NCBI GenBank assembly: GCA_973895155.1
Contig: OZ316895.1
Location: forward strand, 18,710,408-18,774,407
Length of the DNA: 64,000 nucleotides
From: Marsupella aquatica
Taxonomy: Eukaryota > Plantae > Marchantiophyta
Direction of reading: 5' to 3'
Positions 1,721 through 63,717 of the stretch are shown piece after piece. The notes under the pieces are model-generated. The model searched no databases, was not told the DNA's origin, and saw only the letters and a program-made list of their open reading frames with translations. The translations under genes and the position numbers were made by a program. Position 1 is the stretch's first letter; each line of letters opens with the position of its first letter.

Positions 1721-2047
1721 CAATTTCAAGGAAAAGGATTAAGAGAAACAAGCGTACTGAAATTGAATCAAAAATCGGCGGGATGCCAAGATCGGCCGGG
1801 AGCATCTAACAAATCATTGTGTGAATCCCGTGTACGGAACCGACGAGCACTATCTAAGCTCTGTCAACATCGATTCAAGAAGAACTGAAAACCAATAACG
1901 AAAGACATGCCCTAAGTAAACAAAGTCCCGGCGTCACACTAACAAGCGTGTTTGCTTCAAGAATGCCTGGAATTTGCTATAAGAACATGTTGCTAACTCA
2001 AGTAGTACACTAGCCCTAACTACATACCTAGCGGGCATGCAAGGAAC

Positions 2048-3143
2048 ATGCCGATGTGCATAAGAGGCACTGTCCCTCGGCATGACATATGTCATCTAGT
2101 GGATGAGGTAGCCATTATTGGTCCAATGCATGCGCGGTGGATATATTGGGTAGAGCAATTTATGAAAGTGCTCAAGTCTTGGGTGCACCAACCCGCTCGA
2201 CCAAAGGGAAGTATGGCAACAGGGTATATTATGTCGGAGTGCCTATTCTACTCAAGCAAAGTGATAGGGAGTTTGGACACACAGGCTCCCACAGCTTGGG
2301 AAGAGGCACAAGATGATGACAATGGTGGGTTGCGAGTGATGGGCGCGTCAAAGAAGTGATCATTACATGGAGACATTTTTGTCGATAGATCCACAGTTAT
2401 GTGCTGGAAAACCACACCGAGATGTCAAATTGGAGAGAGTTGTATAGGTAGGGACGTAATCCTTCATGTTGAGTCCTACTAAGATTTAAAAAATTAATGT
2501 ACATTCAGGGTTGTAGGCACAAATTAAGGTCTTATGTATTTGTGACCCCGTACTTGCAGGGCATGGGTGGAGCAGCAGCTGATAGGGGCAACACGAGAGC
2601 GTGTTCATGCATCATTTTTCATATGGGCATTGGAGCACATGGAGGGGCTCCTTGCAGTGCATGGCCCTACATTCATTCCATTGATGTACAAAACATCATT
2701 AGGGGGCCTTTGATGTGGGCTATGACTCATACTCACATGTATGAGTCAGGGCACCACTTTCGGACTTGGAGGACAGACCATATGAAGAAGAGTACTTGTA
2801 ACTCTTGAGTATATATGGTGACCAATGTAGGTGATGCTGGCCTTATTGTGGCATTGTCTTGGATATTTTGGATGTTAATTTTGGCTCGTTTACCACCACA
2901 GTGTTAGAGGTGAGGTGGCACAAGTCCATCATGTCACCTCCAGCAAGAGCTACCATGGTGAAGGATGAGTGTGGATTTTATCGTGTGGACTGAGTTTAGT
3001 GACACTATAGTTTTTCCTAGCCAAGTGGATCAATGCATTATGGTTCCAATGCACACCATGGGAGGATGGTCCATTGTGATTCCCATCTTTCCACGTCGTA
3101 GGAAGGACTTCATGCCATCAGCTATTGAAGACAATGAGGATTG
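2048..3143 (+). mobile_element. CACTA/En-Spm transposase C-terminal relic (DUF4218/DUF4216-like), pseudogenised
   Basis: HLVDEVAIIGPMHARWIYWVEQFMKVLKSWVHQPARPKGSMATGY matches the CACTA HL..E...GP...RWMY..ER.M..LK..V.N.ARPEGS...GY motif. Downstream ILDVNFG..VLEVRW..KDECGFYRV..VFPSQVDQC resembles DUF4216. Contains stops and frameshifts. Confidence 0.8.
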
Positions 3144-3727
3144 ACATGATAGACTCACTATCCACATTTGTATTGACTGTTGTCACAGTTTGCATATAAA
3201 CAGACATATTTCATGGCCTAGGCAACTGTCAATTTGGAGAGTGGGATGGGCTTGTTAATCACGTGGTAAAGAAACAAGTAACAACCATACGTTTATGCAC
3301 ATGATCCCTCGGCCTTCTACTACAAGGGATACCGGTCATTAACATTGTCCTTCCAATTTTACGTCGCTGAACAATTGTGTCTAACATCGTTTATAGCTAC
3401 GCACATTCAACATAACACTCTGCAACGTCATGTACTGAACCATTAGCCAATGTTATAACTCCTTTGACGTTATTCTATACTATGTAACCCAGTCAATGTC
3501 GTACTTTAATGATGTATGGCGCGACAAAAGTTGGTTACCACAAGTAGAACGGCATTAATAATTTAGATACGATGTTTCAAACAACGTAACAAATTCGCTT
3601 TGACATTAATCACAGGAAAAAGATGCAACATTCAAACCACACAATTGTTGCAACAAATAACATTCATGGATGTGTTTATTGCTGCACATAGACCAAATAG
3701 AGATACACAATAGCTCTACCATCCTTT

Positions 3728-4450
3728 CTACTGCAAATATAGCCTACATGAGTACGTCATGGTCATCCCTCTACAACCTCCCTCCAGACTGATGTTGATT
3801 AAGGAGTCCCTTCTCCAAACCAGTAGTACTCCTCGTCCGCTTTCCTCTTGTTGTACGAAGCACGCCTTTGGCTGGCATTCCAATTCTCCGGACAACAACT
3901 TCACCGGCCTATAGCCTTTGAGCCTCCACCTTGGCTGCACAACTTTCCTTGTAATCAAACATAGCAATCTGAAGTTTAGTGGGTGACAACTCACATTTAG
4001 ACAAGGTGGGAGGGTAGGCCTCACCATCATCGTCCTCGGGCAAATCTTCCAGACCACGATCACTGCTCGGATGCAACAAGAACTCTCTTGGGTCCAAGTG
4101 CTTGTTGGCAATAATGGACCACTCTACCCACCGAGTAGAGATGAAATGCACGGTTTCAGCAAAAAGCCAGAATAGTCACTGAAATGCTCCACAACCTGTT
4201 TCCACGGATTTGCAATCAAGAAATTGGTCTGTGAGGTACATAGCTTGTCAACAAGCCCTCCATGGCAAAAGAACCCTTGAACCATCTTCTCCTCCTCACC
4301 AAGTGGGAGAAAACAACAATGCACATTTGCAAAGAACTTCTGCACCATAGTTGAACACTTTGCCTCCCACGGTTCAACTTCTCTACACTGAGGACCTTGG
4401 ATGTCTTCACTCGGAAATGCTGGCTATAGGGAGCCTCCCGCCTATAGTTC
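3728..4450 (-). other. Degenerate coding-like fragments of unknown identity (possibly terminal exon(s) of the ParB-MTase gene)
   Basis: Overlapping minus-strand ORFs 4124..4348 and 3909..4151 lie downstream of the 4933 splice donor. No recognisable domain. Confidence 0.25.
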
Positions 4451-4933
4451 AGTCTATCCCCAGCTAATCTGTGGACTTAACATCGTCTCTCCCGATAAAC
4501 TTAAGAACGTTGTCCTATACTACGTTATTAATTATGTTGTATGGGGCCAGATAAGTTACCATGTCTAGTAAGATGTAATATGAGGTACATTGTACAATGC
4601 AAGGTTAATTACTATGCATTCAATGACATAGATTTAACGTCATAGAAAGCAATGTTATCTGCTCCCGTTGGATCTTCGGATGACATCCGACTACCATCCA
4701 AAGATTAACAACATCTAGTCCAACGTTAATCCAAGGAACATAATTTTGGGTTAGATTAAACCTGGTCCCAACATGCAAAAATGTAGTTGTGATATGTCCA
4801 ACCTGAGGGTAAATACCTGCACGCATTGCGATCCAAATTGTAAATTTATCCACCGATAATGTCTTGATGACTACAGGAAACACAAAAGTAGCCCCAGGCG
4901 CTAACAAAAAAGAAGTGACAAAATAATATGTAC

Positions 4934-7900
4934 CTGGATATCAGTCTTTGATCTGTACATGGGCACTAACGTTACAACATTGTGAGAATTGACACAATGG
5001 AACTTTTTTAACTGTTGGCATGCTGCAATGACCTACAAAACCCGGTCGTGGTCATCTAAATACAAGATTGCAAGCATGCCATCATTAGAAAGGAAAGGGT
5101 CCATTGCGCAAAAAAATGCACTAGGAACTGTGTGGTCTAGTACATTCCACTTTGGAACCTGACGGTCCATGAGCATAGGTTTTAGTCCAGTAGGAAGATA
5201 AATGAATCCCGCGTTGACTCCAAATGATCTTTCCTTTCCTCCTTTGATGACTCCTTTTTCTCAGGAACCCGACTTGATTAAGTCCTTTCTCCACTTCTCA
5301 GCATCTGTCACCCACTCTGGTTTCTCTTCTTTGTTGAAAGCACTTTCAATAAATTCTTGTATGCTTGTTTCCACCATGCAATGCCTAAGTGAAGATTTAC
5401 TCTTGAAGTTTCCCACATCTCTCTGGAGACCGGTTCTAGCAGCATTATCCCGGGAAGATTCTCCTACTTGAATGGCCCTTTTCTTCTTCTTCTTTGTACT
5501 TGTTGCATCTAGAGGACAATCTCTTTTGCTTTCTCCACGGGAGTGACAAGGTCTGATTGGGGGTTTCAATAAAGTCTTTTCTATGTTCTATCCCGAGTAC
5601 AAACCGCCCGGAGAAATCTCCTGCAATGAAGGAGCTACCCGCCCCAGCGGTCCAATCCATAAAAGTATCACGAGGTCGGGTGACAAGCTCGATGATAGAT
5701 TGCATAAACCCAACAAACAGACAAGCATTTCCAGCAAACTCCATTTGTGGGAATGGATCGGATTTGAGAGAAGGGAGTCCAATCAAATTGGTGATCAAGG
5801 GGTCTTCACTGATGAAGAGTGGACGGAATTTAGGGTCTTTGGGACTTTTACATTTTCCATTAATTTGACCAAATATGTCCAACCTAAGGGTAAACATCTG
5901 CGGAAAACAATCCAAAGTGTCAGTTGGCAACTCTAGGTTACACGATAGATAACTCAAAACAGGAAAGAGTAAAGAATAGATAATTACCTGACGGTCTATC
6001 TTTGCCGCATACATGGGGACAGACATTACAACATTATGCGTGCATATACATTGGAATCTTCTCGACTCCTGACAGGCAACAATGACTTGAGACATGGGAT
6101 CGTACTCCCCATTGTGTAGAATTGCAAGGAACCCATCATCTGATAAAAATGGATCCATGGATTTGAAAAAAGTTCTAGCCATGGAGTGATCTGGAATGTT
6201 CCATTTAGGAACCTTCTTATCAAGGATTGTTGGTTTGAACCCAGTTGAAAGGTAAATGAAGCCCACATCCACTCCAAACGATCTTTCTTTTCCACCCCTC
6301 ACAACACCCTTCTCTTTTTTTCCCGACTTAACGAGATCCTTCCCCCACTTCTCCACATTACTAACCCATTCAGGTTTTTCCTCCTTGTTGAAAGTTGAGT
6401 CAAAGAATTCAAATAGCCTTGACTCAACCATACAATGCCAAGACATTGTACTCTTGAAGTTTCCAACTTCACGTTGGAGACCAGTTTCTGCAACACTCTC
6501 CCTTGAAGAAGGTCCACCTTCGATAACTCTCTTTTGTTTCTTCCTGGTACTTGTGGCGTCGACTGGAACTATTACCTTCCCTTTGTCGATAGGAGTAATG
6601 GGGTCCGATCGAGCTCCCGTGTTTGCTTCAAAAACTTCAGATGTAGCATCCACTTTAGTATCTCCTATTCCCGCAGTATTAGACTTCCTCCCTCCTAAAT
6701 CAATAGTACAAGGTCATACTTGGAAGATGTAATTCCTGAGTATTGAAACACAGTAGCGCTAGGCGCTAACCAAATAAAAATCACTAAGTGCACTAGAATC
6801 GCACCAGAATCAAGAAAGAAATCTTAATTTGCAAGATAGTTTTAGCCAGCGCCAAGCGCTGGCCAAATTATGGAAACAAATACTCACTTTTCCTCCCAGA
6901 TTTAGTTGACTCGCTTGGTGCTGCTAACTTTGCTTTTGCTTTCGCTCGAGGTTTGCGACTGCGGTCTACATGAACAGTAGTTGTTTCACAGATACTTTGC
7001 AAGTCTGTGGCAGACTTGTCCACATTGTCTAGCAGGCCCTGCTTCATGTCGAACACAATTTTTGCTGGAATGTGGGACTTTGAAAGCTTATGGAATGCAT
7101 CCTTCTCCCTTTGATCAAAAGGCGAATCCCATCTATCTGTATGTAGATGTACCATGGGCAGTGAGTTCTCTCCCATTCTTTCATAGGTCTCGGAGGAAAT
7201 ATGCCCTCCGATGGGTACATGGAATACAAATCAGCTATGGCATCATCCTCATTTATTGTAATCCACTTCATGAAAGCTGCAGGATATGCCCAGAAGTAAT
7301 CACGTTTGGTTACCTCCATGTGCATGTAGAACCTATACAGATACCTTTTAGCCCGCTTCTGGTTTTTCTAGGTGTAGTCTTCTTTGTCTAGATACTTTGA
7401 AAGCCACATAGTGTGAAAGAACTTACTCTTCACAGAATCACCATATCTCTTGAACTCATTTGTAACAAAATGAACGAGATCATCAAACAAACCACAATTC
7501 CACTCTTCTAATCGAGTTGCGGGCATGGTTTGCTCTACTTCACGCAGACACAAATGTAACATGCCGACAACAATTCCCTCCACACTATTCCAAGTGATCC
7601 AAGTGTGACACCATTGTTTCACTAGGTTGTCATTAACACTTGCTGGGTGGAAAAATTGCCTCCGAAGCTCAGGATTGCAATGTGCCACAAGTAGGGTGCT
7701 CCATAACTTTGGGTCTAGTGCAAAAACCGCAGTGAACAATCGGGCGTGGTCCATTGTACATACGACGGTGTCGGGCTTCTTCTCTCTCTTGTTTCTCTCT
7801 ATGACAACATACATTTATGCACATGTACTAAGGAAATCTTCAAATTCAGGACTTAACAAGGGCGTAATTTTGGAAGACTTCACAACCGAGTCTTTGGTTG

Positions 7901-9101
7901 CGTCCTTCATCATTATTGCATGCCATTTGGAAATCTTGTCCACCGACCAGGGGCTCCCTTGAGCCTTGGCTGCATCCATGTCAAGCTTGAATTGGTGCGA
8001 ATAGGACTTTATCTTATTCTCACATAGAATGTAAACAAGAGCTTCTTGTGGCATCTTCTTCGTATACCATGATCCCTTCCGAGTCTTCAGCCAAATGCTC
8101 TCAAACTTCTTGAAATTAGCTGGGTCAATCAGTTTACTGTAATACTCAAGGTCATGCGCCAAAATTCTTTTGATTCTATCTGCATCTAGGATCCAGGAGG
8201 GCTCAACAACGGCTTGGCCAAGCCTACAAGAATAAACGCAGTTAGTTAGAGTCAAAGTACAATTGATCTATAACCAGCGCCGGGCGCTCTTAAATCAAAC
8301 ACTCCTAAGATTCAAGGAAGGAACCGAAAAGTTACGAGAACTTATTGATTGACGGTGTGCATAGCTACCTCAATTTCAATAAGAGATCCCTTGTCTCCCT
8401 TAAAAATTGCGCAGAGCACATGAGGATGGTATTTTGGATTGTCGAGGTTCTCCTTGGTAACAAGCGTCCATGAGTACAGATTGTGATTTCCATCAAAGAC
8501 AGAGAACATCTTATCCTTCAACACGAGAAAATTTGGGTCGGCCTCACATTCAACCTCAAACTTCTCATTCTCCAATTGCCAGATTGGATCCCATGTATCA
8601 CAAACTCCTGGGTACAGGCCAGAAGAATTTTGTTCTCGTCCGTTGGTTGCACATAGAAATGCATTCCTATGGATGAATTGTAAGTAACCCATACTACAAA
8701 ACGAGTCTTTGAGCTTCTCAATGGAAGAGTTGTCTTTCTGCAAAGTACAAACCACCTCCATGTGAACCAATCAACATAGAGGGATTCGAGGCGGCTCCTT
8801 GTCAAATCCACGAGAATCCTTCCCAAAAGATATGACACGCTTGGAGATGAGATCAGTCTCCGCGAGCGCGCAATCTGCAACATCTTGGATCGCAAATGTG
8901 TCAAGGTTCTCCATCTTTCTGCGCAAAGGTTTTTGGAACCAAAACACCGCTAACAGAAGTAGGAGGCAACAACTTTGTGGAACGAGTTACACGACGTGTA
9001 TAAATTGAACCAGTAAACAAAGACTGCAAGGATTCAAAATAAGCTTGCTCCTGATCAAGAACTGCACTATACCCTTTGGCCGAAGAGGGGAATACCTCCA
9101 T
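4934..9101 (-). pseudogene. Spliced gene: ParB/Srx-like N-terminal domain + duplicated beta-class N4C/N6A DNA methyltransferase-like fold; disrupted
   Basis: ATG at 9101. KMFSVFDGNHNLYSW (8468-8512) resembles the ParB DGxHR motif. IIELVTRPRDTFMDWTAGAGSSFIAGDFSGRFVLGIE (about 5595-5700) resembles the N6_N4_Mtase motif X/I. FLSDDG resembles motif VI. Probable introns: 8224-8345 (donor mutated), 6736-6887, and donors at 5987 and 4933. Several stops and frameshifts; the 3' end is uncertain. Confidence 0.7.
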
Positions 9102-9573
9102 CGTCTTCCTTCCAAAAATGTACAAACTATCGTACAATGAAATTATGAAACTCTAATCCTTCTTGAACGTGTATTATATTCTAGAAGGAGGGGGTAGTTC
9201 AGCAAAACTTTTCGATTAAAGCGGCAATCTTGTACGTTTGGCGGATTCCAACGTATGTAAATGGAGGACTCAATTATCTAAATCAAGCAGAAGTTCTAAT
9301 ACACACGGAACTCAGAAGTTACCGTTAAATATTACCGTTACAACCCTTCTCCACACTCATTGGGAATACTAGCATTGGGCGCTATTATAAACATAGAACC
9401 TTCAGAGAGATAAATGGAAGGATAGTCATGACAACGCTCGGGACTAGTAATAATAATGGCAATAAAATAGGTCTGAAATCGTGCCTACAGTACATAATTA
9501 TCGTCTTAAGAACCCATATTTTAGGAAATTTCTGTTGTTTTAATTGTTTTTTGAAAACATATCTTCCACTCTA

Positions 9574-9594
9574 TACTAGCGCCCGGCGCTAGTA
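9574..9594. repeat. Palindrome TACTAGCGCC-C-GGCGCTAGTA
   Basis: Perfect 10-bp arms. Family copies at 4889, 6754, 6845, 8276, 9370, 9709, 9775 and 52584. Confidence 0.9.
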
Positions 9595-9708
9595 AAAACA
9601 TGCATTGTTCATCCCTAATTCTGGCAGGTTTCCCATTTTTAGAGAGCGTTATAAGGCAATTACCTCATACTATTTCTGGTTTTCAAGTATATCTGGAGAG
9701 TGAATTCT

Positions 9709-9731
9709 ATACTAGCGCCTGGCGCTAGTAT
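9709..9731. repeat. Palindrome ATACTAGCGCC-T-GGCGCTAGTAT
   Basis: Perfect 11-bp arms; same family as 9574. Confidence 0.9.
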
Positions 9732-10066
9732 GGTATATCAAGATTTGGGACACATTATTTTTTTCGTATTTAGTTGGCGCCTGGCGCTACTCAAATTGTT
9801 CCGAATATGGAATATTTTAGGGTCAATTAGAGCTTTTTGTGGTGTCCTTTTTGAGAGTATATTTGGGTCTGACATCCGGACTTATTGGGGAAAAATGACA
9901 AAATTCATTTATGGCGCCAACAAATCCTATGTCGTCTACGTTTCTTGTCTTATCCAAACGGCTCTGTTAACGTAAAGTTAACAGGTGCGATTGATATAAG
10001 CTCCACATTCCCACAGACTTTTCTTCCTCAAAACATTACAGCCCCCATTATTTGTTTTTGATTGTA

Positions 10067-11934
10067 ATGTCTCGATCGATCGTTCTATCTCGATTTGGAA
10101 CTAGGGATATTGTCACCATCCCCGTCCCTTTGGCAGACACGTACAAGCAGGTCCGAGAGAGATACCTCTACGGGAGATTTGATTTGAACATGAATCCATT
10201 GTTCGAGAGGTTGAATCCAATGATGACATCAAAGATGCTGCAATGTTCAATGTTGATGATGGTGAACGGTTTTGGCATCTTAACGCAAGGATTTCATACT
10301 CACTTTGGGTTAGACAACATGAAGGACTGTCAAGTGTCCCTCAAGTTCCATTTGATGTTGTCAAGATTTCTTCTAGTGAAGATGGAGATCACACTCCAAG
10401 TCCTTTGTTGAAGATGAAAGTCCCGCAACATGTTGTCATTAAAGGTGAGACTTCGGGAAGCTCTAACCAGTTGGAGGTCGTGTATCGGCAAAGTGCAATG
10501 GACACATGCTCAAATCCACTGGTCATGCATAGCAAGTTATCAAGGTTCACATCAGTGGGGGTACACAACATCATCAGTTATCTCAAAAATTTCAGAATCT
10601 CAGTTGAGGAGTTAAGATGGGGCCTTCGAACTTCCGCGCATCTCAGCTGGGCAGTCGAGGTTGACTCAATCTCGGCTGACCTCGCCGAGATGGGCGTACG
10701 GACTGAAAAAAAAATTTAAAAATTCCCCCCCCAAAAAAAATTTGAATTTTTTTCCCCATCTAAGCTGGCCTTGCCGAGATGGGGCGTACGGACCGAAAAA
10801 AAGGGGGAAAAAAACCAAAAATTTGAAGAAATTTTTTTTTGAAAAAAAAGTTCAAATTTGTTTTTCCCATCTCGGCTGGGCTCGCCGAGATATTGTCCGT
10901 ATGGTACGGATGCCTCATATAAAAAAAGTTTTCCTTCAAATTTTGAAAAAAAATTCAAGTTTTTTTTTTCTTCATTTTTTTCTTTTTAGCATCGCAACTT
11001 GGCGGCCTCCTTGAGATGAGGTGACAACTGATATCAGGTACACTGATGAAAGTGACTGATAACTGATGAGATTACTTATCTCATATCAGTGGGTGATTTC
11101 AGACATGAGCAAGTATCTTGTCTGCCAAACAAGTACAACGGGAACGTTGTGTTTGAATTGCCACCAATCGACAAGATGCTCTCTAAAGGATCTAGGCTTA
11201 GGGACATGGACCATGCCAAAGATTGCTACATTTGGACTCGCATATTTCCAACCACCGCAAACGTCCATTCAAAAAAACATTGGCAATTCGATAAGGTTAC
11301 CTGTATGGGATTTATTGAATGTCGGAACAAGTCCTGCAAGTACTTCCAAGGAAGAAGAAGGCAAATGCTAAAGCATGGCATGGTACTCCAAAGCCTAGTG
11401 GTTGGGATCTTTTATCAAAGAGGGAGGTGTTGTACATGTCATTATTGTCAAAAAATTCCTTTTTGTGTCAAGTACTGCCCTGCTCGCTTGTTTTATATGT
11501 ACCTGCAAGTATTACTTGATGCAGAAACATGTAGTCATATGTCTTGTCTGGCAATTCATATAGGTGAGCATAACCATCCAAGTAGAAAAACCTTCTCTAG
11601 GAGTGTAGAGAAGATGGCTGAGGATTTAATTTAAAAAAATCATGAAGCCAATCCTTTGGCAAAACCAATAGGGATCTTGAATTCTGCTATAGGGTCGATA
11701 GTGAAAGCTCTGTGCAAACATGTTGACGACATGGTCGATATTGAAGAAACTGAAATATGGAAGTCTCTGATGGGACTTTCCACTCCCCAAAAGTTTGCAT
11801 TGCTTTGTTGAAGCGTTAGGATAGACCAAAAGGGTTGGGGTGAGTTAGATTTTCTCTCGCAAATGCAAAAGAGGATTAACCTATCGTTTCTCCAAAGGTA
11901 TTTTCTCCCAGGTCAGGGTTGTCAAGACGATAGG
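10067..11934 (+). mobile_element. GCM-like zinc-finger transposase gene, 5' part (GCM/SWIM-type DNA transposon), disrupted and cut by an LTR-type insertion
   Basis: LPNKYNGNVVFELPP...CMGFIECRNKSC...CHYC..IP...CPAR.....IHIGEHNHP is a GCM/WRKY-superfamily Zn-finger pattern. Reading ends at FLPGQGCQDDR where TGTGA begins (11935). Non-coding hairpin region at about 10590-11040. Confidence 0.65.
10597..11018. repeat. Array of ATCTCGGC-N7-GCCGAGAT hairpins separated by A/T tracts
   Basis: Clear copies at 10669-10691, 10754-10784 and 10869-10891; degenerate copies at 10597, 10639 and about 10990. Confidence 0.8.
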
Positions 11935-14900
11935 TGTGATGCGTCCCATGGCTCCCTAAACCCAAGAAACCCCCTTGCACAAGTTGATTCCCATAGGTTT
12001 CGTTCTGGGCGAGGCCGGTTCCACGGCTTATCGGCATGGGATGCTGCTAACTCTCTTCTATTAACATTTTACACACATATACTGGACAGATCCTTCATCG
12101 GGTCATGAGATAAGTAGCCGGCCTATTCTATGCCTTCGCTTCTCTTCCTCTCCTAGTCTTCCTTTAGGTATGTTTGGATTCCGCCGCCGGAATGATCCCC
12201 GATTGGCTTGGGTTAGCCACTAAGACCTCTCTCAGCTCGACACATCCAACTCGTACTACCTGACTTACTTCCCTTCTCTCTTGGTTGATGTGGGCAATCT
12301 TCAAACAAGTTAATGCGACACACAAATAGCAAATTGACTCCTTCTGACTGAGTTATACCATGCACTTGCCATACAAAGAATACTTCTCATACACAAGATC
12401 TGCGAACTAAGTCGTGAGGCCAACTCTATTCATCTCTTAGGCATGAGGAAACATGAATATACACAAGCCAGGGTCACTATATAACTAACCAAGAGCTTCT
12501 TTTACTACTTGATCCCAGCCCTGCTAGTGCACTAAAAACTTGCTAAAGAAGAAGGCCCTGAACTCCCCGCTGCCCAGGTACTTATCCTGGCAATGGATCC
12601 GCCTAATTCCTTGCAACGTAAGCCTAATCTATCCTAACTATAATCTACCTATGTACAACGAGGTAGGAGCACAAGTGTTGCTCTTACCAGTGGATCCGCA
12701 ATCCCACTTATCTAAGTGTCAGGGCCGCCTCTTGGTCTTGATCATAATTTCTAAACTTAGAGATTTGCGCTTGCCTTGCCCACTCATGCCTCCTCCCTCC
12801 ATGTCCGCCCTCCTTAAAAGGAGCGGCCCTCCACCACGGTCATGGTAGCGGTGGCTGATCCTCAATGGACGCTCCCAACACTTCCTCCGCAGCCATTGCC
12901 GTAGATCCGTCCTCTGACAGATTACCTGCCCCAGATCCAGTCAACTCTCCAGCGGCCTGACTGGATCCACCCTCGGCTTTGGCCTCAGCTTTGGCTACGC
13001 CCTCAGATATGGCTACGGCCTCAGATACGGCTAGGCCTCAGATACGGCTACGGCCTCCCTGGCCTGCTCTAGTGGTGGATCCAATACCCCGACTTCATCA
13101 ATGATTGTCCCGGACTCTACCTTGCCATCCCCGCCTTCTAGGATAGTTGAATCCTTTGCCGTGACCCTGCCTGAGGCTGGTGCCGTGTTCTCCCCCTTGA
13201 TCACGGTGGCTTGAGAAGCCGCGTTGCTCCCTGACCCAGAAGGTTTCCGCTTCTTCTTCTTCCTTGGTTCAGCAACTGGTCCCTTCCCCTTGCCACTTAC
13301 CTCTGGCACCGATGCGAGTGTTGCGGCTTGTCCCTCGGCCAGTATTACCCCTAGCAACTTGGTTGCCACAATTGGAGTTTGAACTGATGAAGCCAAGTAC
13401 TTAAATACTACGGCTTGTTTCTTCAGCCACTCTGTTGGGTTGCCGGCCCGCCATTATAAGTTCTCCATCTTCCTCGTGCTTTCCTCAAACTCCTCCTGCA
13501 TTTTGTCTAGTTCCTTGCGCGCCTCCACCAGCTCCTTCTGGGCTTCCTCCAATTCCTTTCTTAAGGCAACCCTCTCTTCTTGGGTTGCTCTTAGCTCCTT
13601 GTCGAGCTCTGTTACGACCTCAGACTCCATCTGGTTCATCTTGGCATAAGTCTGATCGAGTTGGTCATCCTTCTCACGCAGGTCGGCCTTGAAGCTGGCC
13701 GTCAGGAATGCAAGCTCCTATTGCAGCACAATAATCCCTTGATAGGATCTCCCTAACTCAGCCTCCTTCTGTTCAAGGGCTCCGCGGAGATCCTCGAGCT
13801 CCCCCTTCAGCGCCCTCTCCTTCCTCTGTGTCTCCGCCATGGCCCAATTGTTGGTTGCTATGTGGACCTCCTCTGTGTCCTTCAGCTCCCGCTCCCACTT
13901 CTCCTTTTCCTTGATCGCGTCGGCCAACTCCCCTTGGGTCCAAGTCAATTTATCCTTGATAATCTAACTATCAAACTGAGCGGTATCTAGTTGCCCCTGC
14001 ATGATGTTTAGCTCATGCCGCTTAATCCGCAGCTCATCTTGGGCTTTCTTGGCCGCCTTCAGGTCTTTTGCCTTGGCTTCCTTCTCCTTAAGCCGTTGGA
14101 TGAGCTCGTCCTTCTTCCTCCTCTCCAAAGCCACCGCTTCCTCCAATCAATGTTTTTCCAACATCTCCCTCTGGAAAAAGGGTCCCTCCTCCAACTCCTC
14201 CCCAAAGATATTGAGCGCAAGTTCCCCACACATCTCCCCGTACTCCATAGCTCTTTCTTGCGCATAGGTGAGTGAGTAGTAGTCATCGGCATTACCCACC
14301 GCGGCCTTTGTTCCCAAGCCACCTTTTGGATCTCTTCTATCGTGATTGGTAGGCTGCTTTGTCCTTCGGCAAGCCGCCGGATGTCCTTTGGCCATTCTCC
14401 CCTAGGTAAATCCTTCTCCTTGGCCAAGGCTGCCTCCTCTTCTTCCCTGAGTCGCTCCTGAAACTCCTGTGCCGTCTATTTTATCCCGTCAAATCTTGGG
14501 GGAGCGACATCTGGTGGGGGAGACTTGGGGCTGCTCTGCTGGGTGGGGTCCCCTCAAACTACTCTAGGAAGCATGGGGATGAAACGGCCACAGGTCCTTA
14601 CTCCTGGGACATGATGGTCCGACCCGTAGCCGGAGTCGTCATTGCCGTAGTCCTCCACCACCTCCTCCCCGGCTTGGATTATCGGCTCCCCCCGTTGCTC
14701 TCCTAGTCTTGCTGTGAACATGGCCTCCTACCAAACACAGCTCATGGGTCCTGGTTCCTCCTCCGGCTTCCAGGCTGATCTCTCCTTCTCCCTATTGCGA
14801 CCAGGAGCTTTGGGCTGCTCTCCCTCGGCTTCTGGACTTGCGGCTCCCACATACATTCGAACCCCTGGCTTGTGTTCCGGCCTTCTTCTTTCCTTGGCTT

Positions 14901-15700: not shown

Positions 15701-16012
15701 AGTTTCTCACTCCATTAGACATTATTAAAAATTAAATAAAAATAAATAGTGTGACTTAGAGTAGTCATTTATAAATTATTAGATATAATAGACCAAAATC
15801 ATAGAATAGGTGGTCGTGGATCCTAGACGCAGATAGAATCCAAAGGATTCTCTCTCATGATCTAGAGTATTGTAAGTCAATAATTGACAGTGCCAATTAT
15901 GCAAAGTTTGAGTATATCAAACAGAAGACTCGAAAACATTCTTGGTACACACGGAAAATGCCTCTGGAAGCTCTTGTTTATATTTTGTGCGAAAACAAAA
16001 TCAAAGCTTACA

Positions 16013-16644
16013 CTAACCAGAGGATTGGGTTACTGAAGAAGGAGCTGAAGCGGAGCACTGACGGAGCTGACGAGCACTAGGGTGTGGATCTTTGTCAGGG
16101 TTTTGTGTAGGACTGGATGATTTAAAGGTACCTTTAAATCTCCTAGACGGAGGTGTTTCTACTATCAACCGGGCTTTTTTTTTGAGTTTTTGGTATCCGG
16201 AGGACTTTTCCGCAGGAATAGGGCACTGTGCTTGGCCCGTGGCCACGGTTTTGGTCAACCCTAAGGTGGCTGGTGGTTGTGGTCGAGGGAGTGAAAAAGG
16301 CTTATGCGGATGAAGCATCTGGGCGTTGTGAAAGAAGCTATGTGTGGAGTAACTAATCTCGGTACCAACGACTGGTTTAGGGAATCTGTTAAAATTAGCT
16401 TCTGGTTTGGAGGGTCACCTGCTTTTGATTGAAGTGCTGACTTATCCCTGGCATACACGGCACTTGGGTCTGCACCTGGGATCATCATCAGGGGGAGCTT
16501 CTGGCGGGGAGGTGAGATCTTTCTTCTTGAACGCTGTCTGATTTCCATCATCAGTGAGAACTTGGGATGCCGGTGGAGTGCTGAAATTTACTACTTTAGC
16601 CAATCCTCTATCTTTGATCGGAACTTGCACCTATAAAGTGCATC
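16013..16644 (+). mobile_element. Isolated L1 5' UTR fragment
   Basis: Closely matches the reverse complement of 51122-51750, the 5' end of the full-length L1. Confidence 0.85.
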
Positions 16645-17494: not shown

Positions 17495-18099
17495 TTCACA
17501 TAGAGTGCATGCCATATCTCACTCCTAGAGAATCTCTGTGATATATCAAAATACTTATTTTGTCTCCTTTAGACAAGGGAGATTGCTTTTTGAATAATGA
17601 AAGACCAGGATAAAAGAGAGTATAAATCCAATGGTCAAAAAATATTCTCTCCAAAAGTGAGTTTGTAAACCCACCATACTCCACTTTTGACGGGATAGGC
17701 TATTATAGTAATAGATGTTATGTGTAGAGGGGAGCTCAGTGAGGATGCTATTCTGGAGGAAGGAAAGGGGGGCTCACAATTAGAAGAGAGATCATACAAG
17801 GGGATGGGATTTAGTGAGGAGCTTGGAGAGAGGAGAGTTTAATCTGGGATATTGAGAAAGAGAAATGGGAGGGAAGAGATACAGGGAGCAGTTTGAAGTG
17901 AAGAAAAAGCAGCTCGGTTCATAATGAATTTATGGGGAGAAGGAGGTCTAGGAATACAAGAACAATATGGATAAGTGGGGAGGGTGTCATGGGGAGGGTG
18001 CCGTGGGGAGGAGTAATTGAAACTTCCACCTGAATCAATGAATTCACCTGAATCAATGAATTCTGAAAAACAAAAGCAGGTTATAACGCAGCTTGGGGT

Positions 18100-19250
18100 G
18101 GGACCGCATGCCATTGTGTCAGACCTAAGCAAGCCAGCCAGTAAACAACAAGACATCCCACAAAATCCATCAAAGCCCGGAGGAGCCAATGCTGTCACAA
18201 TCTCAAAACGAAGTAGCAAGGGTGCACCAACATGACATCCTGGCACAACAGAGCTGGCAAAACGGAGCAACACACAAGGGGAGAAGAAAAACCTCTTCTA
18301 CAGTAAGTAGCAATGCGAGCAATGCGAAGGGCTAGTCCTGACTAACTGTTCTAACAAACTCTGCAACATGTAGATTCTCAATCTAAAACAGCAGCAGCGG
18401 AAGTACCTCCTGGCAGACCAGAGCCAACTGTCACAATCCAAAATGCAGCAGCATTGGTGCACCAACATGATATCCTGGCACACGAGAGCCGACCGGTAGG
18501 AACAACACACGAGAAGACAAGAAACCTAATCTGAGGCGCAATACAAAAAGGGGTACTGGAATCCAGTTCTAACAAATTCTTCACCATCTATTACGACGTA
18601 AGCATAGCGAGACCTTAAAAATCTATGATCACTGTGTCAACCTAAAATAGCAGCCGCTGAAGGTTCTCCAACAAGACCTCCTGGCACACCAGAACTGGCC
18701 TAGAGTAGAAAACCTCTGGAAAAGAACACAGAAGAGAACGTTTCGGAGGCCAAGCCCAAGGATAAGAAGGGCCAGCGGAGGTGAATGGAAGGAGGCGTCG
18801 AGGACAACACGAGAAGCCAAAAATAAGTCAGTGGTATAAGATGCAAAAAAATGGTAGAGACAAGTGCAGCAACTTCCAACATGACATCCTGCTAATCAGA
18901 GTTGGCCCGTAGAAGAGAAAAAAAAGAAGGATTACCAATATGAAGTCCTGGCACATCGTAGCCGGCACGTCAAATCAGAGCTAAGAAACCTAGGAATAAA
19001 TCCAAGATGCAGAGCAATGGCTTGAGGCAGTATAATGAACAGAGATGCAAAGCAGAAAGCAGTGGGTGAGAACTAGCCGCAGCAACGACTGGAATGCGAA
19101 CCCGCGCCGGCCAGGGGAGTCAGAAGGGAGCTGTAGATTGGTAAGATTAGACAGAACTAGAGAAACAACAAAAGGAGAAATGCAGAAACATGTTGCACAA
19201 CAGCCTCTGATGATCCAACATGCCATCCTGTCTCATCAGAGCCGGCCCAG
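18100..19250 (+). repeat. Dispersed ~28-bp degenerate repeat CAWGACATCCTGGCACAHCAGAGCYGGC, partly within ~235-bp tandem units
   Basis: Copies at 18231, 18401, 18466, 18672, 18880, 18939 and 19219; they read QHDILAHQSRP-like on the plus strand. Confidence 0.7.
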
Positions 19251-20036
19251 ACTAAAAAGGTGCGTCCTCATCAAGGGGCAGAGACATAGCTTCTAAAGTC
19301 GTGATGAAATCGGACGTTCCACTTTCTTTGTGTACCCCGAGTAAAGTTCGATGTGCTTGAGGTGTTTGAGTACAAATTCAGCCGTTGATGAAGGAGAGAA
19401 TTACCATCTCATCGACGACAAACCGAGTACAAGGCAGATCCAACAGCACTCTTAGCAAGCCAGAGATCCAGTATGTGAAGCAAAGAGCAAGCCAGCAAGC
19501 TGCGGAGAAGGACGGAGAGAGGGGAGTCTTCGGTAGAACCACACCGTGCGATGCAAGGCGCCCGTCGCCTTCGAGCAGAAAATGAAATGGTGATCTTCTA
19601 TGCTGGTCGGGCGACGCTTGCAGAATTAATCTCCGTTTCCGAACCGGTGAGCCCATCGATTGGAATAGAGCACTCCATGAATACTTCTCCTTACACAAAC
19701 TTTCTCTTGGCAGAGATCCGCGCACCAGAGATTGTGTTGTTGCAGTCGCCATTGAGGAGGCCGGGAGTGAATCCAGTGTTCCACTGTATGTTGAGAGCCC
19801 CCAAGTTGGGTGCCGAGAAGTCAATTAATTGTCAGGCAGAGGCTGGCGAGCGTTCGTAGTTGGACTTTGTTGATTCCAGGGCCACAGGCCGGTAAGAAAC
19901 AACATAGACTCCGCAACACAGTTAGAGGATTGAAGTATAGCAAGTGTCTTCCCGAGGGTTGCTTCTCAGCACAAACGGGAATCCGATGAGAGAAAGAATT
20001 TCCAGAGAGCTGCCTGAGAGTCCCCACTTGACATTA

Positions 20037-20457: not shown

Positions 20458-23400
20458 GGATTTGAATCAATTTTTTTTAGGGATTAGATTTTTTTCCCTC
20501 CATAGCAAGATTTTTTTCCACCATTAAGGGAAGGATTAAAGGCAGACAAAGGTGCAGCGGTGGCCGAAATCATCCCGTGAGACTGGATGTCAATGTTCAA
20601 AATGAATTGGATACAAAATCGGGCAATGAGATAAGAAACTCCAAATTTGCCGAACACGATTTGAAAGTTTATTCTCAATTCCTTCAACTTCACCAATTGA
20701 GATTATCAATAAGAAATTATCCAGAAAAATGTCAACGAATTCCATGGAGAAACTTTTATTTCAACCACTCAGCATCAATGGCGCCAATTACTTGTCCTGG
20801 TCGCTTGATACTGAAGCTCATTTAACTTCAAAGAATCTACAGGATACTGTAATAACTGACAATGGCCTAACTCTCCAGCAAAAGGCACAGGCATTGATAC
20901 TAATTAGACACCATTTGAGCGACTCCTTGAAGCGGCAGTACATGAACAAATACAATCCGAGGATCCTCTGGGAAGAGCTCCAATCCCGCTTCGATCACAC
21001 GTGCACCATATACCTGCCTGCAGCCAGACACGATTGGATCAATCTTAGAGTCCAAGACCATAAGAAGATTGCAGACTACAACTGCGAGTTATTCCTGATA
21101 GTATCACAACTGGCCATATGTGGCCACCCTGTAAATGATGAAGAACAGATTGAGAAAACGCTATCCACCCTCCACTCTACCAATCTCATCCTCTCCACGC
21201 AATACCGCAACATGCGATTCACCAAATACTCCGAATTGATCGCACATATGCTCCTAGCTGAGAAGCATCAGCTATTGTATTACAGAACTCCCAAAAACGA
21301 CCTCCCGGCACCCTCCCCCCAGTCACAAACACAGAATCTCATTAAGTGACAACTCAAAGGGGAGAGGGATCATCTTACCGCGGCCCAGGCAGCTTCAGGG
21401 GGAGAAACACAAATAGAGGTCGAGGAGGTCCCTTCAGAGGAAGCGGGGGCAGAAACAACTCTTTCAGAGGCAGATCTAGGGGAAGATATCAAAACAATGG
21501 ATACAACTTCAGAAACAATGGGCAAAGAGACAATTCTCAACCCCGAGCGAGGATACCTCATCAGCAAAGCGCTCAAAGAGATAAATACGAAAACCCCTCT
21601 ATATGTTTCCGTTGCGGCACTAAGGGCCACATTCAAAAATTCTGCCGTGCCCCTATACACCTTGTACAATTATATAAGAAGAGCATTGAACAAAATGAAC
21701 CCGAGACATATGGGACCTTCTTAGAATCCACTGACCTAATACCATCTATAAATATGACTATATCAAGCGACGACTCTACCATAAAAGAAAATCTATCCCA
21801 CTACATAGTCAACAGCGGTACATCGCATTCCATTTTCAAGCATAAGGAATAATTTAAGTAAATTATACCATCACAAAGAAAACTAACGACTATTATGGAC
21901 CAGCACCAATTGGAAGAGGGATGTGGACCTGCAGTGGTCACCCTACCTGGCGGCACGCCCATTCAGGTGAAGTCTGCCATTTATGCTCCAAAGGCAACCA
22001 GGAACTTACTGAGCTTCGGAGATATCCGTGCTAACAAGCTACACATCAAGACGGGCACCCAAGATGGACGGGAGGTTTTGTACATTACCTCGGGGGAACC
22101 ACCAAACACAAAGATCAAAGAGATCCTATGTGCTTCACCCCCTGGCTGTTATACTACTAAAATCTACAGTTTCCACATTGAAGCACCCCAAGGAACACTT
22201 ACCAAGATCTGGCATAGGAGACTTGGCCACCTTGGAACGATAATGTTCTAGAAGCTCATCAGAGAAATGCAAGGTATATCGGAGAAGGCCACCCCACGTC
22301 CATGAAAGCCCCTTGTTTAGCTTGCTCACAGGGAAAGCTTATAATCCGGCCCTCGCCACCAAAAACTGAACATCAAATCCCACGTTTCCTGGAACGCATA
22401 CACGCTGATCATGTATGCGGACCAATCGATCCCCCTAGCGGCCCATTCCGATTTTTTCTGGCAGTCATAAACGCATCCACAAAATGGAGTCAGATATCTT
22501 TATTATCCACAAGAAACCTGGTATTCTCCAGACTCCTCACCCTACATACTAAAATTGAGAGCTCAATTCCCTTAAAACCAAATTAGAACACTGAGAGTAG
22601 ATAACGCTGGTGAATTTACCTCTAAGACGTTCAAAGATTTTTGCCGTGCCACAGGCATTGATGTTCAGTACCCCGTACCTCATGTCCATTTTCAAAATGG
22701 AATAGCCGAATCCCTGATCAAGCGACTACAGCTGATTGCCAGACCCCTACTAATGCAGATGAACTTACCAACAGCTGCTTGGGGCCACGCCATTCTCCAC
22801 TCTGCTGCCCTACTAAGTTACAGACCATCATCATTTAACTCAACTACCCCTTACCACTTAGCATTTGGGAGCATACCAAATGTCTCTCACCTGAGAATGT
22901 TTGGCTGCAAAGTCATGGTACCCATCTTGGGACCCAAGAGAACCAAGATGGGGCCACAAAGACATGCAGGTATATACATCGGTTTTGACTCAACTTCTAT
23001 AATCAGATATATGGAGCCTACTACATCTGATGTATTCAAAGCACGTTTTGCAGATTGCCACTTCTATGAAGAGATCTTTCCCAGTTTACAAACGAAACAA
23101 CTCGACACAGAGAAGAATACTCACCTTACTTGGCAAATTGATGCTGAATTCTGGAACGACCCACGGGACAGCCACGCAGACACCGAAGTACAACGGATCC
23201 TCCACTTGGCCAGGATGGTAGAACACCTACACGACTCCTTTACAGATGCCGCCCAAGTGACCCGCTCCCACATTCCAGCAGCAAACGCCCCATCAAGAAT
23301 CCAAATGGAGACCCCACCAGCATCAGTCACTGCACCGAAAGCAAAGAGAGGCCGCCCACTGGGATCTGCAGATAGACAGCCAAGACAGCGCAAAACCGCC

Positions 23401-26050
23401 CCAACATCTGCACCAAATACATTGATCAGAGACCAAACCCCAATCCAACCAAATGTACCAGAAGACAATGTAGAGATATCAATCAACTATGGAAGAACTG
23501 GACATGTATGGGACAGAGACCATACCACGATAGACGAACACTTTGCCTTCCACATAGCACAGCAGATCGAAGAGGAATTACCAGATACGAACAATTAAAG
23601 AAGTTGAGGCCCAACCTGATTGGCCTGAATGGGAACAAGCCATTCATTTAGAACTGGACTCATTGATAGCCCGCCAGGTATTCGGACCAATTACAATAGC
23701 AGAACCTGTGGTGCATCTCACAAGCTATAAATGGACACTGGTCAAGAAAAGGAATGCGAAAGGCGAAGTAACCAGACACAAGGCAAGATTGGTGGCCAGG
23801 GGATTCACACAAGTCCCCGGCAGGGACTACGACTTAACATACTCGCCGGTAATGGATGTCATCACTTACCGGTACCTTATCACATTCTCACAACGCCACA
23901 ACTTATCCATGCACCAAATGGATATTGTAACAGCCTACCTATATGGACACTTAGACAAAGTCATATACATGGAAGCTCCACCAGAACTGGTGAAATGAGT
24001 CGAGTATCACAGCAAAGGGAAACAAACACATAAAGCTGGAATCCACAACCAGGCGGAAACATTCAAGCATACAAATTCAGCGATACTCCACAAGACTGCA
24101 GCAAAGATAGCACTAACAGATCCTATCCAACATCAAAGGGACACCACCCGAAGAACTCGATTTGCAGTACAGGTGTTAAGATCCCTATATGGCCTCAAGC
24201 AAAGTGGCCTCACATGGTATAAACGTTTTAAGTCAGAAATGTTGGCCATGGGATTTACAAATGCCGACATTGCACCCTGTTTCTGAAACGGGAAAACAGA
24301 GAATTTATTATAGTAGCCATCTACGTGGACGACCTGAACCTGTTCGGAACAAGAAAAATTATGGCTGAAACTATCATACTCTTAAAACAGGCTTTCGAGA
24401 TGCATGACCTAGGGCAGACTTCTTTCTGCCTAGGACTACAATTTGAGCACCTGCACAATGGCATTTTCCTGCATCAGTCCACGTACATCAAGAAAATCCT
24501 GAAGCAATTCAACATGGACAAAGCCACTGCAGTCAGATCCCCCATGGACATCCGCACACTTGACAAAGAAAAGGATATCTTCCGAAAGAGAAATGAAATG
24601 GAGACATTGCTTGGCCCAAAGAAGCCATACCTATCTGCTATAGGTGTCCTGATGTTCCTTTTGAACCAGACAAGGCCAGATATCGCCTTTGCAGTCAATC
24701 TATTGGCTCGCCATAGTGCCAAGCCAACTATTCGGCATTGGAATGGGATAAAGCGCATTTTCCGCTATCTTGTGGGTACCAAGGATCTGGGACTGTTTTA
24801 CCCATCCGAAACTAATTACTCACTTACAGGATATGCTGATGCAGGTTACCTCTCAGACCCGGAGGACGCGAAGTCTCAAACCAGGTACGTCTTCTTGATG
24901 GGCCAGACCGCAATCTCATGGCGAAGTTGCAAGCAAACACTAACAACTACATCATCAAATCACTCGGAAATTATAGCTCTCTATGAATCAAGCAGGGAGT
25001 GCATTTGGCTACGCAACATCATCAATCACATCCATGAGAACACAGGCATACCTACACTGTCAACACCAACAGAAATTCACGAAGATAACAGAGCCTGCGT
25101 TGAACAAATTCAAGCAGGCTTTATCAAGGGAGATCGAACCAAACACATTGCCCCCAAATTTTTCTTTACGCATGAACAGCAAGGCAATAGCATCGCAGTT
25201 AAATGGATACAAAGCTCCCAAAACATCGCAGATTTGTTTATGAAATCACTTCCCCCTGTACTACACAGACAACATACATTCTCTATAGGATTGCGCAACT
25301 TAACTGCATTGCAGGACTAACACCTTTCGGACTGCTTCCGACCTACTTGTCTCCTGCCCAGGGGAGAATAAAAGTGAACCTTGCAACTACACAACAATGC
25401 GTGAAGGAGCGACCAGAAAATACCACATCAGGGGGAGCAAAAAGCACACAGCACACTCTCACGCCAATGAAGCAGAAAGAATCCAACATTACCACAACTT
25501 GTTTGATGCGCAAGTGCCCCGATCACGAACCACCGAAGAGAAGCGCCCGACATCATCAAGAACGACGATCCTAAAACGCAGCAGCGCATAACCTGATAAC
25601 TGCGAACACGGCAACGAAAGCAGCCCGAACATCGAACGCCACCTCGAACACTCTCGATCAAACAGATGAACCTATCGAATTCCACATAGTTCCACTGCCC
25701 TAAACGCAAACTACGATTAACTTTGGACCTGTAGCACGTAGAGGACTTACACGCAAATTACAGTAGAACCTTACTGTATAAGGCTACTGACCAAACGATA
25801 CGGGTACAAAGTCTATAAGACAACCCACTTAATTTTTTTTAACAGACTACAATAACTTTACATTAACATATAGCTTGGAGAAAATGGTAACACTCTTTCC
25901 CCCTACAAGAAAGGAGAGGGGGTTTTAATGAGGTTACATTTTCATTCCTAACTATAAACCTTTCAAAGACTAGGACATATTACACATTAGAGTAGGTTTT
26001 TCTTAGATGGTTGCAACTTTACCCCGGGTCATGTTACACCCAAGGGGGAG

Positions 26051-51751: not shown

Positions 51752-52677
51752 CAGGCCATGCAATTCTTACCAAGCCTACTATCATCTACGAGGATAACAA
51801 GCCTTGTGTTGATCAGATCGTTAAGGGCTTTATCAAGGGCGACCGAATCAAACATATTGCCCCCAAATTTTTCCACACGCATGAACAGCACGGGGACCAA
51901 ATCAATGTTCAATGGATACCTTCTAAAGATAATTGCGCTGACCTTTTTACGAAGCCCTTACCTCGCATTCTCCACAAAGCGCATTCGACTGGAATAGGCC
52001 TCCGTAGATTATCGGACTTCACTGAAATCTGACTTCCCCACGATACCTCCTCTGTTCTATGCATATTCTACTGAACGTATGTTCTCCATACTCGAACATT
52101 TCGACACGTCCTATCGAACACTCATTTCGATTCAGCCATACATGATTACACTCCTTTCTTACTATTTTTGACTCATTACATGTAAGGTAGTGACACTCTT
52201 TTTACCCCAGAAGAAAGCGGGGGGTTTTTAATGAGGTCATACCCCAATGAGTTTTTCCATTATACTCATAACTAGGCTTAAATTTATTTCCAAAATGGTT
52301 ACTTTAAGAAACATCAAGTAACCAAGGGGGAGTGTTAGAATATATTTAACCCTTAGTCCATATGATGATACAAAGAGGTATGCAATACCTAGATATAAAG
52401 AGACACAAGACTAGGAGAGGGTAGTTACAACTACCCCAATGTACAATATAAGATAAGCCACATTGGCTTAAGAGAAATTCAATCATCTTTTGTTGGTGTA
52501 TGTATATTTCATAATTTAACAGCTTTGAAGTTAACAAGTGTTAAACCTGTGAAAATGACATTTTTCTTGAAACACTTGATTACTAGCGTCGGGCGCTACC
52601 TAAACTAAAGTTACCATTATGATACAACAAGTCATACATACCCATTGAACGTATACTAAAATGCTATGCCTTACTAT

Positions 52678-60369: not shown

Positions 60370-60501
60370 GGTAATGGTAATGGTAATGGTAATGTATTAT
60401 AAGCTCCGGGACCATGAAAGTCAAAGGAGCTGCCACAAAAAGTAAAGTACAATGCAATCAAAGAAAAGAGCAACCAAAAGAGATTGCTCAGAAGAGGACA
60501 A

Positions 60502-63705: not shown

Positions 63706-63717
63706 GGTCCCAATCCA

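Follow-up and report, generated by a model that had tools for sequence, protein, structure and literature searches.

A decayed, probably Mutator-like liverwort transposon with a divergent ParB- and methylase-like accessory gene and candidate binding palindromes

The window analyzed here is a 64,000-nucleotide stretch of the liverwort Marsupella aquatica (contig OZ316895.1, forward strand, positions 18,710,408 to 18,774,407). Positions 4889-11934 of the window hold two decayed genes arranged head-to-head on either side of a 965-base spacer: on the minus strand a spliced accessory gene with a ParB-like and a DNA methylase-like part, and on the plus strand the 5′ part of a transposase gene. The candidate start codons of both genes, at 9101 (minus) and 10067 (plus), were found where the initial annotation had placed them. 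The feature is best explained as a dead copy of a repeated DNA transposon. Its description as a decayed copy with no visible termini also held: stops, frameshifts and a mutated splice donor are present, and the right end has been replaced by a long terminal repeat (LTR) element.

The accessory gene consists of four minus-strand exons read from the ATG at 9101, interrupted by stops and frameshifts and with its first donor mutated. Exon 1 (8346-9101) encodes the ParB-like N-terminal domain and is 29-41% identical to liverwort proteins. It has a frameshift near 8935, a stop at 8771-8773 and, at 8494-8483, the DGNH motif that had been noted before. Intron 1 (8224-8345), whose donor at 8345 reads ATAAGT for GTAAGT, lies at the position where the gene models of relatives join or break. 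Exon 2 (6888-8223) is helical, and its first half is predicted to hold a ParB/Noc-type DNA-binding domain; it is disrupted by two stops and, near 7148, by a 2-base frameshift, an indel seen against the contigs of other copies. In intron 2 (6738-6887), the donor at 6887 is good, and the acceptor is predicted to lie near 6738. Exon 3 (5988-6737) contains a linker and the first half of the methylase-like domain, with YLST (6254) at the position of catalytic motif IV. Intron 3 (5898-5987), which is 90 bases long, in frame and bounded by GT..AG, marks the position where the open frames and models of relatives stop. Exon 4 (5562-5897) encodes the second half of the methylase-like domain, including the S-adenosylmethionine (SAM)-binding motif I at 5660, where the previously reported motif I-like MDWTAGAG was confirmed to start. 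Contigs have loose ends at 5562, beyond which other copies continue differently. In the window, positions 4790-5560 (minus) hold the first methylase half a second time, in diverged form, with 68% DNA identity to the first copy over 5067-5509, YLPT at the motif IV position and an intron of its own (4933-4870, GT..AG).

The plus-strand gene (10067-11934) contains a Cys/His finger of the WRKY-GCM1 type (about 11250-11590), has frameshifts and stops, and is cut before its catalytic domain. The finger region is 39-58% identical to the relatives P0083, P0084 and P0086, and its Cys/His pattern is common to all four sequences covering the region. No Pfam or Protein Data Bank (PDB) match was obtained for the finger, Pfam gave nothing relevant in four transposase relatives, and a plasmid search with the transposase returned no matches. 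Recognition in the Atlas was low, with all rows for the finger below 0.9: GCM (12% of members), FAR1, FLYWCH and DBD_Tnp_Mut. The tentative GCM label derives from a weak Atlas row and from a cysteine spacing like that of the GCM structure. In the relatives P0086 and P0085, a domain is present that has two aspartates and, 26 and 38 residues past the second of them, respectively, a DxxH motif; the catalytic glutamate of the DDE triad lies past the ends of these two sequences. A (C/D)xxH motif 15-45 residues after the second aspartate is described as a signature of Mutator-like elements (MULE) and hAT (PMC5499845), and WRKY-GCM1 fingers as typical of MULE transposases (PMC1702500). Judged by the motifs of its relatives, the plus-strand gene is thus likely a Mutator-like transposase, and the D, D, DxxH arrangement in these relatives supports the idea of a transposase partner for the minus-strand gene. 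A SWIM domain, which had also been proposed, was not seen in the window or in the four relatives, which end before its expected place.

The transposase gene is interrupted at 10560-11093 by an A/T-rich non-coding stretch. It had been taken for an intron and is instead an insertion absent from the ancestral gene, since it is flanked by 9-bp direct repeats, has a palindrome family of its own, and is skipped by the contigs of other copies (joint 10526 to 11081). Its raised depth indicates that it is probably a repeated non-autonomous element. It resembles a miniature inverted-repeat transposable element: a 12-bp inverted match lies close to its ends, and its palindrome (ATCTCGGC..GCCGAGAT) occurs three times. 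At 11935-12935, the transposase gene is truncated by the LTR-like repeat of a high-copy element lying outside the transposon, of which a second copy occurs at 35401-36375. Continuation of the transposase past the end of this second copy (36375) was considered and rejected, as no further transposase sequence was found in the window.

A 15-bp palindrome, TAGCGCCNGGCGCTA, is concentrated in the non-coding parts of the accessory gene and the spacer. With up to two mismatches, it has seven matches in the 64 kb, compared with 0.04 ± 0.20 in 100 shuffles, and six of the seven lie inside 4889-9789; with up to three mismatches, eight of ten do. All eight regional matches are in introns or the spacer, although introns, spacer and insertion together make up only 27% of 4870-11934. 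They are found at 4889 (in the intron of the second methylase copy), 6754 and 6847 (intron 2), 8275 (intron 1), and 9370, 9577, 9713 and 9775 in the divergent spacer (9102-10066), where they are predicted binding sites. The palindrome family that the initial annotation saw as shared between spacer and introns is therefore present in the spacer, in introns 1 and 2 and in the intron at 4933-4870, and absent from intron 3. No match with up to three mismatches lies left of 4889. The palindromes carry CG and CCNGG sites, and their core is itself CCNGG, a site type of some bacterial N4-methylcytosine (4mC) enzymes.

The repetition of the locus was assessed from the summed contig depth in four runs, relative to the single-copy stretch 17608-20000. 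Depth was raised throughout 2400-11930 in all four runs. Median relative depth, which as a sum over short contigs does not equal copy number, was 61-159 for the accessory gene, 82-154 for the transposase and 24-51 for the spacer (lowest bin 10-13). High-depth contigs hold shorter variants of the spacer (joints 9395-9576, 9756-9867 and 9925-9995). Both genes and the spacer thus belong to a repeated family, and the depth pattern fits one element in many copies. The liverwort Riccia sorocarpa offers a second view: in its gene model R1sor_026403, a transposase exon is spliced to accessory exon 2 (E 2e-13), a sign, from the predicted model, that the two genes lie close together in a second genome. 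It is likely that both genes belong to one element.

Raised depth also extends to the left of the accessory gene. A decayed reading-frame remnant at 3728-4423 (minus) is repeated in the runs at a median relative depth of 18-139 and has no match in Pfam; it may represent an additional gene or exon of the element, or else the terminal part of the second methylase-like copy, with uncertain membership. Farther left, a remnant of an EnSpm/CACTA-type gene (2006-3144, plus; Pfam DUF4218, E=2.6e-16; depth 26-90) lies tail-to-tail to the accessory gene, and its place in the element is likewise uncertain. A higher-copy repeat appears to have cut off the 5′ end of this remnant near 2085. The accessory gene might instead derive from this EnSpm/CACTA element, or from a larger composite, with the Mutator-like transposase nested or secondary. 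Depth is raised over 2400-4900 without a break (lowest bins 10-33 times single copy), a diverged contig spans the gap 3292-3645, and red algal accessory genes are described from EnSpm/Plavaka elements and as moving between transposon types; the Riccia chimeric model, moreover, has both genes on one strand. However, the depth of the accessory gene is nearer to that of the transposase than to that of the DUF4218 remnant, the palindromes gather in the spacer on the transposase side of the gene and do not occur left of 4889, and it is the high-depth contigs that carry the spacer variants. We regard such an origin as improbable.

The stretch 8345-8770, within the ParB-like exon, was placed by the Atlas with DUF3723 clusters (0.95, with 173-181 shared features) and a ParB_N cluster (0.92). 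The nearest clusters were fungal DUF3723 proteins and a cnidarian cluster. That the nearest clusters of a ParB-like exon are DUF3723 suggests that DUF3723 may itself be ParB-like; a literature search found no paper linking the two. Neither Pfam nor PDB sequence searches gave a match for the ParB N-terminal domain. Nine of 13 sequences retain the arginine that follows GNH (GNHR, compare ParB GxxR); the window copy reads GNHN. A structure model was built for approximately residues 140-680 of the Riccia relative P0033 from 63 sequences, with a mean predicted local distance difference test (pLDDT) score of 84.4. Among viral proteins, the model came closest in Foldseek to a phage Spo0J/ParB-like protein (E 0.084), and in a wide fold search against 48,161 chains, ParB-family chains were three among the 50 matches listed. 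Model residues 172-351 aligned with Spo0J 116-198 (Z 4.6, root-mean-square deviation (rmsd) 2.7, 83 aligned) and residues 173-387 with SopB 157-271 (Z 4.1, rmsd 4.8, 112 aligned), KorB matched at Z 4.4 (rmsd 8.1, 166 aligned), and Noc ranked first when 266 chains were re-aligned (Z 5.8, rmsd 14.1, 173 aligned; next 4.4), every match being below the Z of 8 that guides structural significance. The ParB-family folds Noc, Spo0J, KorB and SopB recur, each of them weak alone. Because these weak matches agree, and because Spo0J and SopB align through their DNA-binding domains, the N-terminal half probably forms a complete ParB-like module, with a nucleotide-binding and a DNA-binding domain. The ParB-like domain inferred from the sequence thus finds support in the Atlas scores of 0.92-0.95 and in the weak but recurring fold matches, and the modeled module suggests that it could read a palindrome.

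The accessory family itself appears to be a liverwort family. A search with exon 2 gave 78 relatives, 30 of which were looked up, mostly chosen by length; these 30 included 16 Riccia sorocarpa models on at least six contigs and two from Calypogeia fissa. The family is dispersed, and its named members are all liverwort proteins, with only ~21-30% identity to exon 2. The ParB-like, helical and methylase-like regions occur together in a single protein in the Riccia models P0033 and P0080. Word-based homolog searches returned one relative of the methylase region, two of the transposase and four in a longer range, and no relatives of the region in viral contigs or prokaryotic genomes. Pfam showed no relevant family in 22 accessory relatives, and PDB sequence searches gave nothing relevant for the window genes. 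A metagenome locus of 1203 bases (L001) carries the ParB exon and is too short to show any partner gene. Upstream of its ParB core, in a likely coding region, a different 15-base palindrome lies at 529-543, a single case which is possibly due to chance. Elsewhere in the window, a relic of exon 2 from another subfamily was observed at 15808-16032 (plus; 71% DNA identity). It follows A/T-rich DNA that is intron-like and comes directly after 15656, where the high-copy LTR element is cut off.

The methylase-like domain was compared with a reference profile of 74 phage beta-class enzymes, obtained from 81 loci after seven without a long match were dropped. The family aligned collinearly with this profile in the expected beta-class order (IV...X-I), with an hhalign pairwise E of 2.4e-5 and a probability of 75.6; the second half of the domain is covered by the window sequence alone. 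The first half gave a profile score of 18.4, compared with 11.6 ± 1.6 (maximum 15.1) in 60 shuffles, and the motif I region was 42% identical to the phage enzymes over 43 columns. The beta-class motif order and the SAM-binding motif I (PF01555) are thus present and support the proposed amino-methylase-like domain. The motif X of the initial annotation did not hold, as its position reads GNACLF here, compared with HPTQKP in the phage enzymes. PDB sequence searches with the accessory gene returned no methylase.

The catalytic motif differs from that of the phage enzymes. Canonical motif IV, taken as (D/N/S)(P/L)P(Y/F/W), was found in none of seven family sequences, compared with 67 of the 74 phage enzymes, among which DLPY is the commonest form (35/74). 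The family sequences read YLST, YLPT, YLPT, DMPS, DMPT, DLPT and SVGT at this position. At the same time, the proportions of synonymous (pS) and nonsynonymous (pN) differences between the two methylase halves in the window were 0.82 (saturated) and 0.23 over 185 codons, so the first half of the domain evolved under purifying selection. Exon 2 and its relic at 15808-16032 gave a pS of 0.91 and a pN of 0.17. Simple decay was ruled out as the source of the odd motif IV, which is common to diverged copies under purifying selection. Because motif IV is non-canonical in 7/7 sequences while the half that contains it is under purifying selection, a conserved pseudo-methylase is a likelier reading of the methylase part than a 4mC writer, though an unusual active site is possible. 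The pattern suggests an early loss of the catalytic motif with retention of the domain.

An active writer of 4mC or N6-methyladenine (6mA), using an unusual catalytic motif and guided by its ParB part to its own element, would fit the 42% identity of the motif I region to phage enzymes and the purifying selection on the first methylase half. Three liverwort members (DMPS, DMPT and DLPT) keep the first D and one P, close to DLPY, the palindrome core is of the CCNGG type mentioned above, and an equivalent proposal has been made for a gene of Ectocarpus (PMC12477816). However, the motif IV aromatic residue is absent in 7/7 sequences and the D in 4/7, the sole sequence reaching the motif X position shows no conservation there, and the methylase domains carried by DIRS1 transposons are described as probably inactive (PMC4738411). 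We consider a writer unlikely. The suggestion that the protein marks DNA like DN4MT1 or N4CMT is not upheld, given a motif IV that is non-canonical throughout, where MpDN4MT1 has TSPPY; nor did the element gain support as a vehicle for plant amino-methylases, and no link to DN4MT1 or N4CMT was found.

The account we prefer, and hold tentatively, is that of a Mutator-like transposon whose accessory protein binds the element's own palindromes via a ParB/Noc-type domain and is likely to protect it against silencing, without placing a methyl mark. The accessory protein would dimerize on the palindromes of the shared promoter and introns, and the bound protein would hold the element open, shielding it from silencing, while the methylase fold would serve SAM and DNA binding and not catalysis. 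Within this account, TAGCGCCNGGCGCTA is probably a parS-like site of the accessory protein, predicted to be bound by a dimer, and there is a reasonable likelihood that the methylase-like domain, as predicted, binds SAM and DNA without methylating. By analogy with the VANC protein of VANDAL elements, occupation of the shared promoter and introns might keep both genes expressed, a prospect that we rate as just short of even.

Several findings weigh against the preferred account. No element termini were found in the window, where the right end is the LTR element and the left end is not visible. None of the contigs behind the depth values, themselves no measure of copy number, spans both genes, and R1sor_026403 is the only one of 86 fetched accessory-family proteins with a transposase piece, and there the two genes share a strand instead of standing head-to-head. 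An isolated copy of TAGCGCCNGGCGCTA lies at 52584-52598, in A/T-rich DNA without a match to either protein. Four libraries gave only sub-threshold DNA methylase matches (Pfam E 0.03, PHROG 0.04, NCBIfam 0.23 and phage 0.7), which are not independent because the same 40 residues are involved in each, and the Pfam match failed to recur with a shorter query. The P0033 model has pLDDT below 50 at residues 29-58 and 116-130, within the ParB N-terminal domain, and gave no match at E<=0.001 in two Foldseek libraries; unrelated helical fragments rank above the ParB-family chains in the wide fold search, and all Z scores are below the guide value.

Two other roles for the ParB-like module were weighed. 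It might serve transposition, by pairing or tethering copies or by holding the excised element on chromatin, with the methylase fold as a passenger and no role in silencing. The ParB/Noc-like architecture, the arginine kept after GNH in most sequences and a divergent layout suited to co-expression with the transposase would agree with this. The palindromes, however, are located in the promoter spacer and introns, like VANC motifs, and not in end arrays, and we judge a role of this kind doubtful. Also unlikely, in our estimate, is a working ParB/parS-type clamp in bryophyte Mutator-like transposons, which would load at the palindromes and spread, so that the dead methylase fold covers CG and CHG sites. 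If true, it would represent sequence-specific anti-silencing built from bacterial segregation and methylation parts in a plant nucleus. With a candidate 15-bp site and a predicted ParB/Noc-type domain, the choice between writer and shield becomes directly assayable, in a lineage that includes Marchantia.

Accessory genes of this type have already been described in algal transposons, which the initial annotation omitted; Iyer et al. 2011 is reportedly cited for green algal cases. The present element is a variant of this recently described algal design, with a land-plant host, a probably Mutator-like chassis, a candidate site, and a catalytic motif lost while its domain is conserved as new features. 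In Ectocarpus, Sola1-1_Ec32 is described with a gene of 1104 amino acids, ParB-like and N4C/N6A methylase-like, opposite the transposase and proposed to bind and modify its own element (PMC12477816); neither catalytic motifs nor palindromes are mentioned in the accessible passages of that text. Both domains are likewise in one gene here, on the strand opposite to the transposase, and the size is similar (1191 amino acids in a Riccia relative). The host is a land plant with a probably Mutator-like transposase, unlike the brown alga with its Sola-1 transposase. For the red algal Plavaka (EnSpm) elements, a ParB-like accessory protein (PAG2/PAG3) is described with nearby inverted repeats as proposed sites, in a cassette that also holds a PF01555 methylase and has homologs in Chondrus Mutator elements (bioRxiv 10.1101/2025.02.11.637652). 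In Plavaka, ParB is fused to a 2-oxoglutarate oxygenase and the methylase to SET, whereas ParB and methylase are fused to each other here; the Plavaka repeats form tandem arrays, whereas the palindromes here are single and scattered over spacer and introns.

The VANC protein of Arabidopsis VANDAL elements is described as an accessory anti-silencing protein; the short motifs to which it binds are located in introns and upstream of the transposase (PMC5735166). In the Plavaka preprint, VANDAL is named as the sole transposon known to act in this way. The candidate sites here are similarly in non-coding parts of the element that would encode their reader. Unlike the palindromes, VANC motifs run through tandem repeats in a single orientation, and the function has been shown for VANC, whereas here it is inferred. 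Pfam gave no match tying the accessory family (22 relatives) to VANC domains. The predicted arrangement of N-terminal and DNA-binding domains is like that of bacterial ParB, Noc, KorB and SopB, and the motif order is that of phage beta-class N6_N4 methyltransferases. Unlike these bacterial and phage proteins, the accessory protein comes from a spliced eukaryotic gene and has ~100 residues inserted in the DNA-binding region, an extra helical domain and a degenerate motif IV.

Among host genes, MpDN4MT1a/b of Marchantia is described as an active enzyme with TSPPY that is compared with beta-class enzymes, and ParB is unmentioned in the accessible passages of that text (bioRxiv 10.1101/2021.02.12.428880). 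Like MpDN4MT1 and the rotifer N4CMT, the accessory gene is a eukaryotic gene with a bacterial-type amino-methylase fold; unlike MpDN4MT1, its family lacks the SPPY motif (7/7) and resembles a transposon gene in being dispersed and decayed. How DN4MT1 arose is not explained by the finding. Further eukaryotic methylases linked to ParB, as well as methylases that are borne by transposons and likely inactive, have been described (PMC4738411). The literature searched, largely without subscription papers or supplements, revealed no land-plant ParB-methylase transposon gene, and no paper was found on Riccia sorocarpa with DNA transposons.

The remainder of the window is rich in other repeats. Remnants of long interspersed nuclear elements (LINE) and of copia elements (zf-RVT, DUF4283, RVT_1 and copia gag) occur at 85-1280, 20630-25320, 40228-43666, 44075-50851 and 57283-63717, and the first of these is an insertion, as contigs skip it. 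Positions 48339-49095 and 60369-61125 form an inverted pair with 99.6% identity, which suggests a recent LINE copy. A further stretch of 610 bases is present twice in inverted orientation, at 16038-16644 and 51122-51732, with 91% identity.

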